Of a DNA stretch of 64,000 nt, positions 11,589 to 55,838 are shown one piece after another. A model generated the notes under the pieces. It ran no database searches. It was given only the letters and a program-made list of their open reading frames with translations, and was not told where the DNA came from. Within the stretch, counting starts at the first letter, position 1, and every line of letters begins with the position of its first letter. This DNA comes from Actinomycetota bacterium (GTDB lineage Bacteria > Actinomycetota > Actinomycetes > S36-B12 > UBA5976), in assembly GCA_016870575.1 (NCBI GenBank), contig VGBH01000001.1, forward strand, positions 27,083-91,082, read 5' to 3'. A program made the translations under genes and the position numbers.

Positions 11589-12866
<1,278 letters not shown>

Positions 12867-49416: not shown

Positions 49417-49893
49417 ATGCCACGAGAACAAGGACGAAAGTTGATTGCGCAGAACAAGAAGGCTCGGCACGACTATCTTTTGGGTGACACTTATGAAGCA
49501 GGAATTCAACTAGTTGGAACTGAAGTTAAGTCACTACGAGCTGGCCGAGCATCTTTGGTGGATGGATTTGCTGAAGTGAGAAATGGCGAAGCTTGGCTTA
49601 GGAATGTCCATATCCCAGAATATGAACAGGGATCTTGGACTAACCATGAGCCTAGACGTGCTCGCAAATTGTTGCTCAAAAAAGAGCAACTGCGTAAACT
49701 GATTAAATCCACTAAAGAGAAAGGCACAACTATTGTGCCACTGTCTTTGTATTTTAAAGATGGCTTTGCCAAAGTTGAGATAGCGGTAGCGACGGGCAAG
49801 CAAGCTCACGATAAACGCCAGACAATCGCTGCTCGTGATGCTGCTAAAGAGGCTAGTCGAGCAATGGGTCGCCGACTCAAAGGTGATGAATAA
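49417..49893 (+). CDS. smpB: SsrA-binding protein
   Basis: 158 aa with the typical SmpB sequence (...[10 protein letters not shown]...GTEVKSLR...). Confidence 0.95.
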
Positions 49894-49971: not shown

Positions 49972-50345
49972 GGGGGTGAACGGCTTCGACATCGTTCGAA
50001 ATGACAGTTGAAGCGGGCAGAGAATCAATGGTTATCTCTTAAACATTCCATTGAACCTAAAAATGCCAAACATAAGGCATCTGATTTCGCCCTTGCTGCT
50101 TAATAAGTAGTAAGCCCGAATCCGTCGACCCAGGGCCGCTTCCTTCCTGGATTTCGGCGTCGCTGCGGAAGCTAACAAAGTGTGGGGGTCACGACCACAT
50201 AATGGAAATCTCTTTGTGACTTGAGCCAAGTGTTGCGACGGGCCACGAGATGCGCAACGGCTGACTACTTGAAATTGTGGCTGCGCCCGGAGAATGCCTG
50301 AAGTTATGACGTTGGACGCGGGTTCGATTCCCGCCACCTCCACCA
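49972..50345 (+). ncRNA. ssrA: transfer-messenger RNA (tmRNA)
   Basis: The 5' GGGGGTG pairs with the 3' CACCTCC (including the G3:U pair), followed by ACCA. The T-arm is GCGGGTTCGATTCCCGC. An internal tag ORF at 50065-50100 encodes AKHKASDFALAA and ends in tandem TAA TAA stops at 50101-50106. It lies directly after smpB. Confidence 0.9.
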
Positions 50346-50475: not shown

Positions 50476-51582
50476 GTGGACAGAATTTCAAAGATTGAGA
50501 CATTTGAAGCTCGCGTGCCACTTCCAGCTCCACTCGCCGTTGGTTCAGCCAAGATAACGCATCGCACATATTCAATTGTCAAAATCACAACAACTGATGG
50601 TTTAGTGGGTATCGGTTACTGCTACAGCAGGGGCTTACCAATCGCAAAACTAATTGCAGATGCAATGGCACCTGTAGCATTAAATCAAACAGCAGAATCA
50701 CCAAAAGAAATTAGAGAAATAGTTTTAGGATTTAATTGGCAATCAGCTGAGCATGGCACGGTGTCTGCGGCTGCAAGTGCTATTGATATGGCTCTCTACG
50801 ATATTGCAGCAAAACGACAAAATAAGAGTGTTGCTGCTTTACTTGGTGCAAAGGTTGCTGAGATACCCATCTACACAGTTATTGGTTACCACTATGGACC
50901 AGATGATTCAGGTCTGGCAGATGAAGTTGAGTATGCCTTAAGTAAAGGTATTAATTCATTCAAGATGGTGATGGGTGCCGAGTCACCAGAGCGCGATGTT
51001 GCACGAGTTAAGTTAGTAAGAGAAATCGCTGGAGCTAATGCACCAATTGCATTAGATGCATTTAGAACTTTAAAGACACTTGAAAATGCAGTTAATCGAG
51101 TAAATTTGTTAAGGGAACTCAACATCGCATTTATTGAAGATCCCTTCCTGGAATCAGAAGGTCTTTTGGCAATTGCACTGCGCGAAGCAACCGGGGTACC
51201 AGCCTCATTTGGAGAATCGCTTGCCTCAGCCAAGATGGCAGAGCAAGTTCTACATTACAAGCAAACAGACATTTTGCGAGTGGACGCATTAGTTATTGGG
51301 GGAGTAGACCAATTTCTAGCGGCAGCATCTGCAGCAGGTAATTATGGAAAGACATATGCCACACATATACACACGGAAGTGCATTCACAGTTAGCAGCAG
51401 CAACTTCAAACTTATATGCTGGTGGACTTGAGTATTTAGATCCAAAGTATGAGATAGATCTGTTTCATCATTTGCTAATCGCGCCCATAAATATTCTTGA
51501 TGGTAAAGCAGTATTGAGTAAAGAACCTGGTTTTGGTATCAATTGGGATTGGGACGCAGTTATTAAGTTCTCTAAGATTTAA
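50476..51582 (+). CDS. mandelate racemase / muconate lactonizing enzyme family protein (enolase superfamily; probable acid-sugar dehydratase or epimerase)
   Basis: 368 aa with an N-terminal capping domain (...IVKITTTDGLVGIGYCY...). Barrel motifs are SFKM, ALDAF, FIEDP, FGES, RVDA and THIH, which are candidate metal ligands and a His/Asp dyad. Confidence 0.85.
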   Translation: MDRISKIETFEARVPLPAPLAVGSAKITHRTYSIVKITTTDGLVGIGYCYSRGLPIAKLIADAMAPVALNQTAESPKEIREIVLGFNWQSAEHGTVSAAASAIDMALYDIAAKRQNKSVAALLGAKVAEIPIYTVIGYHYGPDDSGLADEVEYALSKGINSFKMVMGAESPERDVARVKLVREIAGANAPIALDAFRTLKTLENAVNRVNLLRELNIAFIEDPFLESEGLLAIALREATGVPASFGESLASAKMAEQVLHYKQTDILRVDALVIGGVDQFLAAASAAGNYGKTYATHIHTEVHSQLAAATSNLYAGGLEYLDPKYEIDLFHHLLIAPINILDGKAVLSKEPGFGINWDWDAVIKFSKI

Positions 51583-51595
51583 TGAAAGGTTTTGC

Positions 51596-52576
51596 TTGAA
51601 ACTGCTTGATGAAAACACAGTTGTTGATTACTTGATTAATCAGAAATTACTTGATGCTTCTGAGCAAGTTACAGTTGAACAGTTAACTGGTGGAGTGTCA
51701 AATACCGTTTTAGCGATTAAGACAAAAGACTCTGATCTTGTATTGAAGCAGGCATTGCCGGTCCTAAAGGTAGCTCAACATTGGGAAGCAGATCCGCGAA
51801 GAGCGATAGTAGAAGCTAATGCAATTGGGCTGTACCACTCAATTACCCCAAGTCACGTGCCGAGATTGGCTTTTCTTGATGCAGAAGCGTTTGTGTTAAT
51901 TATGCAGCGAGTACCTCGGGATAGCAGTGTGTGGAAAACGAATCTGTTATCAGGGAAGTTTCAATTCAATGTGGCGGAGGTATTGGGACATACCTTAGCG
52001 CAGTGGCACCTTTATGGTGAATCAAATTTTTCTCAATTACAGCATTTTCGAGAAGATGAATTATTTGAACAATTAAGGGTAGATCCATTTTATAGATTTG
52101 TAGCAATTAAAAACCCAAAAATTCAAAGCGATATCCAATTACTTATTGATGAGTTAGAACAACAACGTATAACTTTAGTTCATGGTGACTTCTCGCCAAA
52201 AAACATTATGGCTTCAAATTCTGGTCCAGTTTACATATTGGATTATGAGGTAACACATTTAGGTAATCCAGTTTTTGATTTGGCATTCTTACTGGGACAT
52301 CTGGTATGTAAATTTTTTCGTGCTCCCAAAGATCAAGAGAAAGATATAGCTGAAATGGCATCTAGCTTTATTACCAGTTATAAGTCAAAGCGTGATTTAC
52401 CATTATCGCTCGCTCACCATACGGCTCTAATTGCACTTGCAAGAGTTGAAGGTAAATCACCGGTAGATTATCTAGGCTTATCCCAGCAGAATAAACTACA
52501 AATCTTTACCAAAGAGGTACTATCTAATCCCATTGGATTAGATACTCTCACACTATTTGATTCGGATGCCAAATGA
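51596..52576 (+). CDS. MtnK-like / aminoglycoside-phosphotransferase-fold kinase of unknown substrate
   Basis: The N-lobe has LTGGVSNTVLAI...LVLKQALPVLKV...W..DPRRAIVEANAI, which resembles methylthioribose kinase. The catalytic loop is HGDFSPKN and the metal site is ILDYE. The TTG start at 51596 was chosen; the longest ORF starts at 51533, inside the previous gene. Confidence 0.75.
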   Translation: MKLLDENTVVDYLINQKLLDASEQVTVEQLTGGVSNTVLAIKTKDSDLVLKQALPVLKVAQHWEADPRRAIVEANAIGLYHSITPSHVPRLAFLDAEAFVLIMQRVPRDSSVWKTNLLSGKFQFNVAEVLGHTLAQWHLYGESNFSQLQHFREDELFEQLRVDPFYRFVAIKNPKIQSDIQLLIDELEQQRITLVHGDFSPKNIMASNSGPVYILDYEVTHLGNPVFDLAFLLGHLVCKFFRAPKDQEKDIAEMASSFITSYKSKRDLPLSLAHHTALIALARVEGKSPVDYLGLSQQNKLQIFTKEVLSNPIGLDTLTLFDSDAK

Positions 52577-53844
52577 AAATTGTCGATCTACTCGGATATC
52601 AAGTTTTAGATTCCCGCGGACGGCCAACCGTTGCTGCTCGAATAACTTTGGCAGATGGCAGTTCGCATGTTGCCAAAGTGCCATCTGGAGCATCAACAGG
52701 GCAGCACGAAGCTGCAGAACTTCGTGATGGCAAAATTACTGGCACAAATTCCTATTATTCTGGACTATCTGTAACTAATGCAGTTTCGAATATAAACAAT
52801 AAAATTAAACCTGTAATTATTGGTTTAGATATTAATTTAAATCAAGTTGATAGCAAGCTAATTGAATTAGATAGCTCAGAGCGATTTACAAATATCGGTG
52901 CAAATTCAACCCTTGCGGTATCGCTGGCTTCTAGCTTGGCGCATGCACATAGTCAGCAGAAATCTCTTGTTCGATTCTTTCAACCAAATGGCAAGTTAAT
53001 GATTCCGATGCCGATGATTAACATCCTTTCTGGCGGAGCGCATGCTAACCGTGGGATGGATATTCAAGATGTTTTGATAATTCCAATTGGAGCTAAATCT
53101 TTCTCTGAAGCGATTGCATGGGCAGCTGGTATTCGAGAAGCTGCTGCCAAATTGGGACAAGCAAAAGGAATGCTTACTCATTTAGTTGCTGATGAAGGTG
53201 GATTAGGAATTGCTTTTAACTCGGTTAATGCGGCATGTGAATTTGTAATTGAAGCGATAGGTTCGGTTGGACTAAAAGTTGGTCAAGAAGTGAGTTTGGC
53301 ACTTGATATTGCAGCTACCCAATTCTTTTCAGAGAACAATTATGTGTTAGCAAGTGCAAACAAGAGTTATTCTGGAAAAGAATTTGTTCAATTTATAGTT
53401 AACTTAGTAAATGATTTTCCAATAGTTTCAATTGAAGACCCCTTTGCTGAAGATGATTGGCAATCTTGGATTGATTTTAATCAGATTGCTCCAAAACCAA
53501 TTCAAATCTTGGGAGATGATTTACTTACAACAAATCTATCTCGATTAGAACGGGCGATTTTAGATAAAGCGGCAAATGCTATTTTGATTAAACCAAATCA
53601 AAATGGTTTGGTAACCAATACTGAGCACGTTGTTCGCAAGGCCAAAGAAGCGCGGTTCCGCACAGTTGTTTCAGCTCGATCTGGCGAGACAGAGGATTCA
53701 TGGTTAGCTGATTTGGCTGTTGGTTGGGGTGCTGGACAAATCAAAGTTGGTTCAACCCACGGATCGGAGCGCACAAGCAAATGGAATAGGTTGTTGGAGT
53801 TAGAGCTAATTGAAGACTGTGAGTTTGTTAACCCGTTTGCCTAA
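52573..53844 (+). CDS. divergent enolase paralogue (second enolase-family protein in this window)
   Basis: 423 aa, colinear with eno at 11589-12866. It retains SGASTG, DEGG, ALDIAAT, SIEDP, GDDL, IKPNQ, RSGETED and QIKVG, but has QDVL in place of QEFM and SARSGE in place of SHRSGE. It shares an ATGA overlap with the kinase gene. Confidence 0.85.
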   Translation: MKIVDLLGYQVLDSRGRPTVAARITLADGSSHVAKVPSGASTGQHEAAELRDGKITGTNSYYSGLSVTNAVSNINNKIKPVIIGLDINLNQVDSKLIELDSSERFTNIGANSTLAVSLASSLAHAHSQQKSLVRFFQPNGKLMIPMPMINILSGGAHANRGMDIQDVLIIPIGAKSFSEAIAWAAGIREAAAKLGQAKGMLTHLVADEGGLGIAFNSVNAACEFVIEAIGSVGLKVGQEVSLALDIAATQFFSENNYVLASANKSYSGKEFVQFIVNLVNDFPIVSIEDPFAEDDWQSWIDFNQIAPKPIQILGDDLLTTNLSRLERAILDKAANAILIKPNQNGLVTNTEHVVRKAKEARFRTVVSARSGETEDSWLADLAVGWGAGQIKVGSTHGSERTSKWNRLLELELIEDCEFVNPFA

Positions 53845-53854
53845 AATTATTTGG

Positions 53855-54892
53855 TTAGCGAAACTCAGGAATCTCCACTTTATAGCGGTCAGCAACCTCA
53901 AGAATGTTTTTAATAACACCTGAAGAAATAGCTACCCCATTCTTGCTCCGGCTCATCTGAGTTTGATATTCAAACTCACCCGGCATTAGCACACTATTTG
54001 GTTCACCAGCATTATGCATAATTAACTCAAATTCTTTTCCCACCGATTTGAATGCTTCAACCGAAGCAAATCTAGAAACATCAACTCCAATTAGAACTGT
54101 GCCGTTACCAAAACCGCTTTGGGAAATTGCTGCCGGCATGTTTCCCGATAAAATTCCAGCAGCTAAATCAATCAATACTGAAACACCCGATCCTTTATGA
54201 CCACCAAAAGTAAGCAGCGCACCACCATTTGTTAAGTCATCTGCATTAGTAGTGGGTTGACCATCTTTATCAAGAAGCAGACCTGGTTCTAAAACTTCAC
54301 CACTCATCCCAGCCAAGATAATTTTGCCGGCTGCCACGATTGCCGTAGAGAAGTCCAAAACATAATTAAATGCACCACTTCCGGGCAGCGACCAAGCAAA
54401 TGGGTTAGTACCCAGAACTCGTCTGAATCCACCAAATGGGGCAACAACCGCACCGCCGGTATTGCAAAATGCTATTCCCATAAGACCAGCACTTGCCATC
54501 AAATCTGCGTATTCGCCTAAGCGACCAACGTGGTTAGTTTGCTTTAGCACGATAGTTGCGGTGCCATATTGCTTAGTAAGTTCAATGAGTTTTTCAGTTG
54601 CAAGAAATGAAGCTGTCTGACCCCAACCCCAAGCACCATCAATCTCTGCGGTTGTTTCTTTACTAAACGCAATTTGTGGATGTGCTGCTGGAATTAACTT
54701 TCCCTGCTCTACCCAGCCGGAATATTCAACCAGTCGGATGATTCCGTGGGAATCATGACCAACTAAGTTTGAGAGTACTAGTGATTTTGCAACTGTGTTT
54801 GCAGATTTCGTCGGCGCACCCATTGCACCAATTACGCGAGCAGTTATTTCAGTTAGCGTTTGTGCGCTAAATGTATTGATTTCATTAGACAA
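53855..54892 (-). CDS. Ldh_2-family (malate / L-lactate / L-sulfolactate type) NAD(P)H-dependent oxidoreductase
   Basis: 345 aa with the family pattern ...GHDSHGI...NHVGRLG...TNP....P....DFSTA...GGHKGSG... Confidence 0.85.
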   Translation of the reverse strand: MSNEINTFSAQTLTEITARVIGAMGAPTKSANTVAKSLVLSNLVGHDSHGIIRLVEYSGWVEQGKLIPAAHPQIAFSKETTAEIDGAWGWGQTASFLATEKLIELTKQYGTATIVLKQTNHVGRLGEYADLMASAGLMGIAFCNTGGAVVAPFGGFRRVLGTNPFAWSLPGSGAFNYVLDFSTAIVAAGKIILAGMSGEVLEPGLLLDKDGQPTTNADDLTNGGALLTFGGHKGSGVSVLIDLAAGILSGNMPAAISQSGFGNGTVLIGVDVSRFASVEAFKSVGKEFELIMHNAGEPNSVLMPGEFEYQTQMSRSKNGVAISSGVIKNILEVADRYKVEIPEFR

Positions 54893-55838
54893 ATTTTGCC
54901 TCTACTAAACCTAAATCTCCAAAATCTACGCTAACTAAATCTCCTACTTGAACAAAACAATGACCGGTGCAAGTTCCGGTGCTGATAAATTCTCCAGCCT
55001 TGACATATCGGCCTCGCTCACGAAGCCAATTGATCATCCAAGTTGCGCTAGTAATTGGGTGTCCCATTGCTTGGAACCCTTGACCAGATTTGATGTAATT
55101 GTCATTTACATATAAGTCTAGATTCGCATTAGGTAAATCAATATCTTGCCAGTCTTTAAACTTGTTGCCAACTACAAAAGCAGCACCACCAGCGTTGTCA
55201 TACATTCCACCGAAGTATCCACTTAGGCTGTACCAGTCTTCAAAGACAGAATCACCAATCTCAATTACTGGTGCAAGAAATTCAACGCCAGCTCGAACAT
55301 CTGCTTCGGTATAGGGATTTACTCTTACTGGAAAATCAACTCCAAATTGGAAGGCAAACTCACATTCACAAAGTCGATAGTTAACGAAAAAATCAGATGG
55401 CACGTCAGCGGGACTATGCATTACTGAGCGAGTAAATAGTCTGCCAGGTGAAGGCTCTGGAATATTCTCGGCTTTGCGCACATCTAAGCTTGCAGCTCCA
55501 ACTTTCCAACCTGCACCTTCCCAGCATAGGGAATATTCCAAATTTAGTACGACATGCGCCATCGAATTCCACGACCTTGCACGTAGTCGCTCTGGCATTA
55601 CAACAGGAGTTCTACTCTTACGTCCAGATGAAATTAACTCAATTACCTCATTTAATTCAGCAGGAGATAAATCAGACTCACGACTAGATGGCTTTGATCC
55701 ACCGGGCGGGGTTGGGCCATGAATCAACCTGCCTCTGTCACTTAAATAGTCGGCGCGTGGTTTGTTTCGATTCGCACGAATAGTTGCTAACCGCGTAGAT
55801 TGATAATCATTCATAAGTTTGCACTTTAGCAGAATCAA
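54885..55838 (-). CDS. 2-oxopent-4-enoate hydratase-like (MhpD/HpcG-type, FAH-superfamily) hydratase/decarboxylase
   Basis: The core is ...GWKVGAAS...EFAF...EIGDS...GEFISTGTCTG... An alternative ATG lies at 55814. It overlaps the Ldh_2 gene by 8 nt. Confidence 0.7.
   Translation of the reverse strand: MILLKCKLMNDYQSTRLATIRANRNKPRADYLSDRGRLIHGPTPPGGSKPSSRESDLSPAELNEVIELISSGRKSRTPVVMPERLRARSWNSMAHVVLNLEYSLCWEGAGWKVGAASLDVRKAENIPEPSPGRLFTRSVMHSPADVPSDFFVNYRLCECEFAFQFGVDFPVRVNPYTEADVRAGVEFLAPVIEIGDSVFEDWYSLSGYFGGMYDNAGGAAFVVGNKFKDWQDIDLPNANLDLYVNDNYIKSGQGFQAMGHPITSATWMINWLRERGRYVKAGEFISTGTCTGHCFVQVGDLVSVDFGDLGLVEAKFV

Follow-up and report, generated by a model that had tools for sequence, protein, structure and literature searches.

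Enolase-family paralogues with an altered leaving-group subsite are encoded beside an MtnK-like kinase and may act on a variant of 2-phosphoglycerate

As far as we know, members of the enolase family proper are generally assumed to share one function, and automated annotation gives all of them the name 'phosphopyruvate hydratase, glycolytic process'. The stretch of DNA analysed here (the window, 64 000 nucleotides from an Actinomycetota bacterium) raises the question of what a second enolase is for. It encodes both a canonical housekeeping enolase and a paralogue, which appears in public annotation as a glycolytic enolase; the genome thus does not depend on the paralogue as its sole enolase. 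The features discussed below are reported in table 1.

Table 1. Features of the window, with positions counted from its first nucleotide.
Feature	Position	Strand	Remarks
Canonical housekeeping enolase (Glu168/His373), comparator	11589..12866	+	TIGR01060 645.5 bits
MR/MLE-family gene, likely acid-sugar dehydratase	50476..51582	+	368 aa; first of three-gene cassette
MtnK-like APH-fold small-molecule kinase	51596..52576	+	326 aa; TTG start, AAGG before it
Enolase-family paralogue, Asp168/Ala373 clade	52573..53844	+	423 aa; Asp166 at 53068-53070, Ala368 at 53674-53676
Ldh_2-family (malate/L-lactate/L-sulfolactate-type) dehydrogenase	53855..54892	-	convergent with paralogue
FAH-superfamily protein, MhpD/HpaH/NahK type (hydratase or decarboxylase)	54885..55838	-	8-nt overlap with Ldh_2 gene

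The paralogue is encoded by an intact open reading frame with both enolase domains (PF03952, Enolase_N, 1.3e-36; PF00113, Enolase_C, 6.9e-76). It scores 416.7 bits against TIGR01060, above the cut-off of 300, and is 42 per cent identical to the housekeeping copy (BLASTP, E = 1e-104). The AF2 model of the protein (pLDDT 82, pTM 0.84) superimposes on bacterial enolases with TM scores of 0.88–0.91 (Foldseek). The top PDB matches are canonical enolases with at most 42 per cent identity, and none is a structure from the paralogue's own clade.

In canonical enolase, Glu168 and His373 (yeast numbering) line the leaving-group subsite, which holds the hydroxyl and its water. The first-pass annotation had proposed that these two residues become Asp and Ala in the paralogue, with the metal, phosphate and base residues retained, and both statements were confirmed by alignment. 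The motifs GMDIQDVLIIP and VVSARSGETED align with their housekeeping counterparts, gap-free nearby (BLASTP); in a MAFFT alignment with yeast Eno1, the Glu168 position is occupied by Asp166 (codon GAT) and the His373 position by Ala368 (GCT). Ser39, His159, Gln167, Glu211, Asp246, Glu295, Asp320, Lys345, Arg374, Ser375 and Lys396 are all kept. The invariant Glu168/His373 pair is thus the canonical feature that the paralogue lacks. Other clade-specific changes around the active site are N155S/G, M170L, N207L, G209A, T397V/I and A399S. An alignment artefact is ruled out by the gap-free invariant motifs, by the recurrence of the changes in every clade member and by the normal predicted enolase fold.

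Judged from the residues, only the subsite near the C3 leaving group is altered, and the 2-phospho-carboxylate machinery is fully conserved; the earlier suggestion of conserved chemistry with remodelling on the C3 side is to this extent supported. The Glu168 equivalent is required in canonical enolase, since the E163A variant of the Mycobacterium tuberculosis enzyme is non-functional (PMC10619443). In principle, an Asp and a water molecule could stand in for Glu168 and His373. The first-pass annotation also described a loop insertion. The insertion, after the motif RDG, is real (10 residues against five), but it is not a signature element. It is specific to the close homologues of the window paralogue: the 10-residue loop is found in all 120 closest homologues among the matches listed (at least 65% identity, acI-type), and the rest of the Asp/Ala clade has four to six residues there, as in canonical enolases.

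Whether the Asp/Ala pair defines a clade had been left to an alignment of homologues, and this shows that it does. Among 257 aligned enolases, 151 are Asp/Ala and 95 Glu/His; mixed and other states are rare. The Asp168/Ala373 combination occupies about 31 of about 135 clusters at 50 per cent identity, and Glu/His is found in all 93 canonical representative clusters, as well as in the yeast and housekeeping enzymes. In a neighbour-joining tree, calculated without support values, 40 of the 41 Asp168 sequences lie on one side of a single bipartition. On this sequence evidence, the Asp168/Ala373 enolases are a widespread, separate branch of the family. Full-text literature searches found no characterization of the clade or of any kinase–enolase pair. 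In cultured strains, Asp/Ala copies are carried on plasmids and chromids, and the plasmid-borne copies bear the standard glycolytic name ('phosphopyruvate hydratase, glycolytic process'). Such locations, like the canonical enolase in the window, suggest that the Asp/Ala enzymes are not redundant. Cultured carriers of the pair include Rhodococcus opacus PD630, Paracoccus seriniphilus, Methylobacterium nodulans, Cupriavidus necator and Haladaptatus.

The gene directly upstream of the paralogue encodes a kinase and ends in a TGA that shares nucleotides with the enolase ATG (ATGA). This gene and the operon context were overlooked in the first-pass annotation. The kinase matches PF01636 (9.6e-16) and has the G-rich loop, the ATP-binding Lys, the HGDxxxxN catalytic loop and the Mg-binding Asp; the motifs GGVSN, KQA and HGDFSPKN and residue D216 are invariant (alignments A1 and A2). 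Its nearest relative is MtnK (phmmer 1e-10 and 1e-7; Foldseek TM 0.77–0.79 with PDB 2olc and 2pyw), and the JGI label for the partner is '5-methylthioribose kinase'. A function as MtnK or as an aminoglycoside-resistance enzyme was rejected because of the low TIGR01767 (MtnK) score, 86.6 bits in two partial stretches against a cut-off of 275, and because of the sugar- and acid-catabolic neighbours, among which no annotated methionine-salvage gene was found. The partner kinase also differs from MtnK in being about 70 residues shorter, with 16–18% identity (Foldseek). No match was obtained to the known glycerate kinase classes (GlxK/GarK, MOFRL, GLYK), Pfam and NCBIfam giving only APH-type families; to our knowledge, none of these three classes has the MtnK/APH fold.

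The linkage was followed in both directions. A kinase-seeded genome search yielded 80 loci, to which four fetched earlier were added. An enolase adjoins the kinase in 75 of these 84 loci, in more than 10 phyla and including haloarchaea. All 75 kinase-adjacent enolases have Asp168, and all that reach position 373 have Ala (Gly in one case) and Glu211. The metal ligands, base Lys345, acid Glu211, Lys396 and phosphate site are present in these homologues wherever the sequence is complete (n = 75). Seven kinase homologues without an enolase, in unrelated contexts, were treated as a sister subfamily and left out. The reverse scan covered 120 metagenomic loci encoding V-S-A-R-S-G-E-T-E-D, with Asp168 in every alignable one. 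In 76 of the 83 loci that could be assessed for the kinase, it lies beside the Ala373 enolase or one gene away (immediately upstream of it in 65, immediately downstream in nine and one gene off in two); it is absent from the contig in six. Fusions of an APH kinase and an enolase also exist (P0129, 745 aa; P0154, 770 aa; P0142), and their enolase part is Asp/Ala or Asp/Gly, whereas canonical enolases are fused to partners other than an APH kinase. The dedicated kinase, upstream or fused, is independent support for a phosphorylated acid, produced in situ, as the substrate of these enolases.

In the window, the pair is preceded by an MR/MLE gene whose top matches are L-talarate/galactarate dehydratases, far under the family cut-off. 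This three-gene cassette is kept in loci L001–L005, L007 and L008. The MR/MLE gene was nevertheless rejected as an obligate third partner: it is found in about 19 of the 84 loci, with differing subfamilies, and is lineage-specific. The convergent Ldh_2 and FAH-superfamily genes are both conserved in L005, and an Ldh_2 homologue follows the pair in L047; each product is a possible pathway partner. The recurrent neighbours are SDR (40 loci), 2-hydroxyacid dehydrogenase (36) and FAH (26) genes, often translationally coupled. Others are IlvD or MR/MLE dehydratases, lactonase and ALDH, together with GntP, TRAP, TTT or ABC transporters and CdaR or LacI regulators. The FAH partners are closest to 2,4-didehydro-3-deoxy-L-rhamnonate hydrolase (266–289 bits). 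Rhizobium has a ppc–2-hydroxyacid dehydrogenase–kinase operon, Cupriavidus has ppc nearby, in anaerobes the pair is bordered by CdaR and GntP, and an HpcH aldolase adjoins it in Haladaptatus. Many high-GC pairs are solitary, without conserved neighbours. The invariance of the signature across such different contexts suggests one common substrate for the clade.

Taken as a whole, the data are best explained, by a modest balance of probability, if the paralogue supplies the lyase activity of an obligate kinase–lyase unit that converts a free acid, through a variant phospho-acid, into PEP or an analogue. The paralogue would then probably dehydrate the phospho-acid made by its paired kinase and not serve glycolysis. 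The kinase would transfer phosphate from ATP to the 2-hydroxyl group of a glycerate-type acid that is initially free and carries a leaving group at C3. The conserved residues suggest that the carboxylate and phosphate of the product would be bound on two Mg2+ ions by the equivalents of Asp246/Glu295/Asp320, Ser39, Arg374/Ser375 and His159. The Lys345 equivalent would remove the C2 proton and the C3 group would be expelled with the help of the Glu211 equivalent, giving an enol phosphate: PEP from a three-carbon acid, a 3-substituted PEP from a longer one. The changes Glu168 to Asp and His373 to Ala would widen the subsite for the leaving hydroxyl and water, and since this subsite would be enlarged, the kinase product is probably not ordinary D-2-phosphoglycerate; a stereo-, C3- or leaving-group variant of it is more likely. 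The remodelled pocket and the obligate pairing both argue against the ordinary compound. Such a unit may end oxidative, non-phosphorylative sugar or sugar-acid routes, with a dehydratase, an SDR or 2-hydroxyacid dehydrogenase and an FAH hydrolase upstream, by feeding a fragment into the PEP node.

Known systems resemble this unit in part. Canonical enolase (EC 4.2.1.11, TIGR01060) has the same two-domain fold, metal ligands, phosphate site, Lys345 and Glu211, but the paralogue has Asp168/Ala373 and about six more clade-specific changes near the site, and its clade is separate, has a kinase as obligate neighbour or fusion partner, and coexists with a canonical copy. The glycerate 2-kinase and enolase of the non-phosphorylative Entner–Doudoroff pathway and the glycerate/serine cycle also lead from a free acid through a 2-phospho acid to PEP, with sugar-acid dehydratase, 2-hydroxyacid dehydrogenase and ppc as neighbours; here, however, the kinase has the MtnK/APH fold and the enolase is a dedicated variant, not the housekeeping enzyme. 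An enolase homologue of phosphinothricin biosynthesis (carboxyphosphonoenolpyruvate synthase, PhpH type) has reportedly been assigned a substrate other than 2-phosphoglycerate. That enzyme differs on the phosphate side of its substrate and belongs to a phosphonate gene cluster, whereas the paralogue has an intact phosphate site and catabolic contexts; no phosphonate-cluster family (PEP mutase and others) was found among the annotated recurrent neighbour families.

The strongest competing explanation, to which we give rather less credence, is a self-contained glycerate-to-PEP module, in which a new type of D-glycerate 2-kinase would be paired with a true 2-phosphoglycerate enolase, the Asp/Ala pair only tuning kinetics. 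The serine cycle contains a comparable segment of hydroxypyruvate reductase, glycerate kinase, enolase and PEP carboxylase. The D-2-hydroxyacid dehydrogenase, which is among the commonest partners (36 loci) and often translationally coupled, the Rhizobium ppc and the CdaR and GntP genes of anaerobes are exactly the partners of a plain module from hydroxypyruvate through D-glycerate and 2-phosphoglycerate to PEP, and this counts against a variant substrate. The TIGR01060 score and the presence of every 2-phosphoglycerate catalytic residue point the same way, and SDR and FAH operons resembling 'Route III' would free glycerate from hexonates (background in PMC6336799). On the other side stand the invariance of Glu168/His373 in the 93 canonical clusters and the inactivity of the E163A equivalent. 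Furthermore, in these contexts the kinase hardly ever occurs apart from the Asp/Ala enzyme, even though an enolase is already present in every cell. Genomes of acI/Nanopelagicales are small, and a redundant enolase would be unexpected in a relative of this group that has a canonical copy in the same window.

A C3-extended or opposite-enantiomer substrate comes next, with slightly less weight still: L-glycerate, leading to PEP, or a C4 2,3-dihydroxy acid (tartrate, erythronate, threonate), whose 3-substituted PEP would be handled by pyruvate kinase, an FAH decarboxylase or an aldolase. The enlarged pocket, the diacid-type regulators and carriers (CdaR, TctC, TRAP) and the HpcH aldolase of Haladaptatus are consistent with it. 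The 6-hydroxy analogue of the substrate of the L-rhamnonate-type FAH partner would release L-glycerate, and a side activity of canonical enolase on phospho-erythronate is on record (PMC4192683). Nevertheless, the D-specific dehydrogenase partner speaks against L-glycerate, and a C4 acid would not end in PEP: its product would call for additional enzymes, of which the stand-alone pairs have none. Long, sugar-specific substrates are disfavoured by the invariance of the pocket over many sugar contexts. A paper on 2-phospho-L-glycerate (CpgD) proved to be unrelated.

Conversion of a 3-substituted (2R-like) lactate into PEP by beta-elimination of a group bulkier than hydroxyl is improbable. The example considered is sulfolactate: its conversion to 2-phospho-3-sulfolactate, and of this to PEP and sulfite, would run the ComA reaction backwards. 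A glycerate or lactate with an O- or S-substituent would fit too. The ComA-type reaction, a model for this reading (cited in PMC9457059), shares Mg-dependent chemistry and the 2-phospho-3-substituted lactate/PEP pair, but involves an unrelated protein family, runs in the direction of addition and has no kinase partner. Shrinking Glu168 and His373 frees space exactly at the leaving-group subsite, PEP as product agrees with ppc as a neighbour and with the solitary pairs, the SDR/FAH/dehydratase operons might give sulfolactate from sulfoquinovose, and the window has the L-sulfolactate-dehydrogenase-like Ldh_2 gene. However, two carboxylates (Asp168 and Glu211) would stay beside a negatively charged sulfonate. 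Ten nearby membrane proteins were tested and none is a TauE-type sulfite exporter; no sulfite-related family was found among the annotated conserved neighbour families, and the nearby sulfatases target sulfate esters, not sulfonates.

For the kinase substrate we propose only a rough ranking. D-glycerate, the variant-isozyme case, stands first as a tentative choice, ahead of tartrate or C4 sugar acids, which are unlikely; L-glycerate is more doubtful, 3-substituted lactates such as sulfolactate slightly more so, and some other compound takes the remainder. With L-glycerate, tartrate or tetronate and 3-substituted lactate (sulfolactate) as candidate acids, we lean narrowly towards regarding the clade as the first widespread branch of enolase proper with a substrate other than D-2-phosphoglycerate, working in an obligate kinase–lyase pair from a free acid to PEP or an analogue.

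If this is true, the isofunctional view of the enolase family would be overturned and thousands of annotations would be corrected. The large family of MtnK-like kinases, which at present carries the label 'aminoglycoside phosphotransferase' or '5-methylthioribose kinase', would gain a role. Little-understood non-phosphorylative sugar-acid pathways of freshwater, soil and gut microbes would receive their final steps, and a new entry to central metabolism would be defined in bacteria, among them the abundant acI lineage of fresh waters, and in haloarchaea. Because the pair occurs in cultured strains, the question of its substrate is directly testable.

The paralogue shares 42% identity with the housekeeping enolase. 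Against the NCBIfam enolase equivalog (cut-off 300) it reaches 416.7 bits and the housekeeping copy 645.5 bits. The paralogue has the domains and score of an enolase and lacks the Glu168/His373 feature (yeast numbering is used throughout). The first-pass annotation had proposed that these residues are replaced by Asp and Ala. Every motif that it quoted was found, aligned without gaps between the two enolases. The substitutions were located in a MAFFT alignment with yeast Eno1, whose numbering was verified at 13 known catalytic positions. They correspond to Asp166 (53068-53070) and Ala368 (53674-53676) of the paralogue. Ser39, His159, Gln167, Glu211, Asp246, Glu295, Asp320, Lys345, Arg374, Ser375 and Lys396 are unchanged. 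An AlphaFold2 model (pLDDT 82.3, pTM 0.84) matches bacterial enolase structures with TM 0.88-0.91 (identity to any structure at most 42%). The gap-free motifs, the alignment and the enolase-like model together show that the substitutions are genuine and not an alignment artefact. The PDB holds no entry from the Asp/Ala clade.

An insertion after the RDG motif had also been pointed out. The paralogue shares this loop (52729-52758, residues 53-62; 10 residues versus 4-6 in other enolases) with all 120 of the closest homologues listed, and the rest of the clade lacks it; AlphaFold2 confidence is low here (pLDDT <50, residues 53-65).

Coordinates of the window genes and gene order around the kinase-enolase pair in cultured strains (eno, Asp/Ala enolase)
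Feature or strain	Coordinates	Strand	Description
Housekeeping enolase	11589-12866	+	canonical copy; 645.5 bits on NCBIfam enolase equivalog
MR/MLE gene	50476-51582	+	13 nt ahead of kinase
APH-fold kinase	51596-52576	+	TTG start; 326 aa; AAGG before start; TGA overlaps enolase ATG
Enolase paralogue	52573-53844	+	423 aa; Enolase_N and Enolase_C domains
Rhodococcus opacus PD630			FAH-2HADH-eno-kinase-FAH
Paracoccus seriniphilus			LacI, then kinase-eno-FAH-SDR-SDR-sugar ABC-SDR
Sphingobium			2HADH-kinase-eno; adjoining cupin, extradiol-dioxygenase-like and ADH genes
Haladaptatus			HpcH aldolase, then kinase-eno-cupin; four MR/MLE genes around
Methylobacterium nodulans			eno-kinase pair alone
Rhizobium indicum			LysR-ppc-2HADH-kinase; eno 4.5 kb off

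HMMER was run against all 1.84 billion cluster representatives. Among the best 150 enolases, Asp168/Ala373 occurs in about 31 clusters (50% identity level), with identity to the window protein down to 37%; Glu/His occurs in 93 of 93 canonical clusters, and few sequences have a single change or a different one. One bipartition of a neighbour-joining tree, built from 140 sequences without positions 168 and 373, holds 40 of the 41 Asp168 sequences and only two others; the pair therefore defines a clade, as the first-pass annotation had suggested could be checked. Further clade-specific changes surround the active site: N155S/G, M170L, N207L, G209A, T397V/I and A399S. In a few side branches of the Asp168 group (proteins P0178, P0179, P0183, P0146 and P0229) the general acid Glu211 is gone as well, with 168/211/373 states D-D-G, D-T-Q, D-G-I and D-T-R. 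Such proteins may be enolase-family enzymes that have diverged further, or may not be enzymes at all.

The clade is linked to the kinase in both directions. Five kinases, two of them the N-terminal domains of fusion proteins, were aligned and used to scan one genome per species, which gave 80 loci from Actinomycetota, Chloroflexota, Acidobacteriota, Bacteroidota, Spirochaetota, Bacillota, Atribacterota, Pseudomonadota, other bacterial phyla and haloarchaea. With four loci fetched earlier, an enolase adjoins the kinase in 75 of 84; of the other nine, two stop at a contig edge and seven lie in unrelated contexts. All 75 adjoining enolases have Asp168, and those long enough to judge have Glu211, Lys345, Ala373 (one Gly), S/G155, A209, V/I397 and, with two exceptions, S399. 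Conversely, metagenome contigs were searched for V-S-A-R-S-G-E-T-E-D coding sequences; G/C wobble bases were specified so as to keep out the low-GC acI relatives sampled before. All alignable enolases carry Asp168; in the 83 loci with adequate flanks, the kinase is adjacent upstream (65), adjacent downstream (9), one gene off (2) or absent (6). One kinase-less locus, L114, is split as in Rhizobium, with enolase and kinase in neighbouring operons. Three representative proteins (745 aa, 770 aa and one fragment) are APH-enolase fusions, all with Asp168 and Ala or Gly at 373; canonical enolases are fused to other partners. The Asp/Ala substitution thus sets apart a clade of enolase-family enzymes that are coupled to a kinase.

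The closest characterised relatives of the kinase are 5-methylthioribose kinases, which are distant (86.6 bits versus a cut-off of 275; phmmer E-values of 1e-10 and 1e-7 against PDB entries; Foldseek TM 0.77-0.79 at 16-18% identity). Score and gene context rule out MtnK itself. The seven homologues without an adjoining enolase (loci L039, L048, L049, L051:6515-7561, L056, L060 and L066:7989-9059) probably form a sister subfamily with another substrate; the two from Dehalococcoidia (L051, L066) have two luciferase-like monooxygenases, a lumazine synthase, an AIM24 protein and an SDR as neighbours.

Recurrent neighbours of the pair include SDRs (40 loci), D-isomer 2-hydroxyacid dehydrogenases (36 loci, often overlapping the kinase start), FAH-family proteins (26 loci; best match 2,4-didehydro-3-deoxy-L-rhamnonate hydrolase, under its cut-off), MR/MLE (19 loci) and IlvD/Edd (9 loci) dehydratases, lactonase, ALDH, PfkB, LacI or CdaR regulators, and ABC, GntP, TRAP, TTT, SSF and MFS transporters; in high-GC soil lineages the pair lacks conserved neighbours. 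The MR/MLE gene of a Chloroflexota locus (L058:6844-7947) scores 625 bits as cis-3-hydroxy-L-proline dehydratase (NCBIfam cut-off 500), versus 49 bits for the window gene, whose best match is L-talarate/galactarate dehydratase (150 bits versus 500); the same pair has therefore acquired MR/MLE neighbours from different subfamilies. In anaerobes (Enterocloster and spirochaetes; L044:5466-6479, L057:10317-11345 and L069:4115-5200) the pair occurs with CdaR and a URO-D-family protein, whose nearest solved relative is the methylcobalamin:CoM methyltransferase MtaA (4ay7, 127 bits), and in two of the three (L044, L057, L069) with a GntP permease. In acI operons a conserved 307-aa gene precedes SDR-kinase-enolase (L010:1037-1960 and 12 other acI loci); it has a weak Peptidase_U32 match only (32.6 bits) and no sequence relative found in the PDB. 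In the window, the MR/MLE-kinase-enolase cassette is separated from smpB (49417-49893) by a tmRNA gene (49972-50345, tag peptide AKHKASDFALAA); integration often takes place at tRNA and tmRNA genes. GC content is 0.389 across 52-54 kb, versus about 0.43 elsewhere.

All six cultured-strain replicons encode Asp/Ala enolases, every one annotated as 'phosphopyruvate hydratase' or 'enolase'. On Rhizobium indicum plasmid pPR12A204 (L206, 4142-8972), a PEP carboxylase gene is first in the operon with the 2-hydroxyacid dehydrogenase and kinase; the operon next to it carries the enolase together with cupin, VOC-family and ABC-transporter genes. On a Cupriavidus necator plasmid (L208), the pair also has a ppc fragment about 7 kb away. 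Plasmid Asp168/Ala373 copies (L205, L207, L209-L211) are recorded as 'eno, phosphopyruvate hydratase' or 'enolase', with a GO term for glycolytic process in RefSeq, and the kinase as '5-methylthioribose kinase' (JGI) or 'aminoglycoside phosphotransferase'. The glycolytic enolase ('phosphopyruvate hydratase') and '5-methylthioribose kinase' names are probably over-annotations.

In yeast and human enolase structures, the leaving 3-hydroxyl and its water lie between Glu168 and His373. Both residues are replaced by smaller ones in the paralogue, which would open space at the leaving-group (C3) subsite; a larger leaving group, a substituent on C3 or a substrate of opposite configuration at C2 would each be compatible with this. 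None of the residues for phosphate, carboxylate, metal, base or acid function is altered, so the paralogue is predicted to act on a 2-phospho-carboxylate as before, taking the proton from C2 and expelling a C3 group; the dedicated, ATP-dependent kinase would supply this phospho-acid from the free acid. Since the pocket signature does not vary although the gene contexts differ widely, a single small substrate shared by all is more likely than many sugar-specific ones. PEP is the product suggested by the ppc neighbour, the stand-alone pairs and the minimal transporter-kinase-enolase modules. A plain module from D-glycerate through 2-PG to PEP fits, and matches the D-2-hydroxyacid dehydrogenase and ppc partners. 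It leaves unexplained the clade-wide replacement of two residues invariant in canonical enolases (mutating the equivalent of one of them abolishes activity of the Mycobacterium tuberculosis enolase; PMC10619443), the near-absence of the kinase without an Asp/Ala enolase in these contexts, and the retention of both enolases within 41 kb of a probably small, acI-type genome. In 'Route III', a 4-dehydrogenase and an FAH hydrolase cleave 2-keto-3-deoxy sugar acids to pyruvate and lactate or glycolate (PMC6336799); by analogy, glycerate might be released from hexonate by similar chemistry. Other substrates are weakened: sulfolactate because no sulfite-handling genes were found among the ten nearby membrane proteins tested or the conserved neighbour families annotated, L-glycerate because the partner dehydrogenase is D-specific, and C4 compounds because stand-alone pairs exist.

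Full-text literature searches brought up no characterisation of the clade or of the kinase-enolase pair. A kinase-coupled Asp/Ala clade would surprise specialists who hold enolases to be isofunctional, and the cultured hosts of the pair make its function directly testable.
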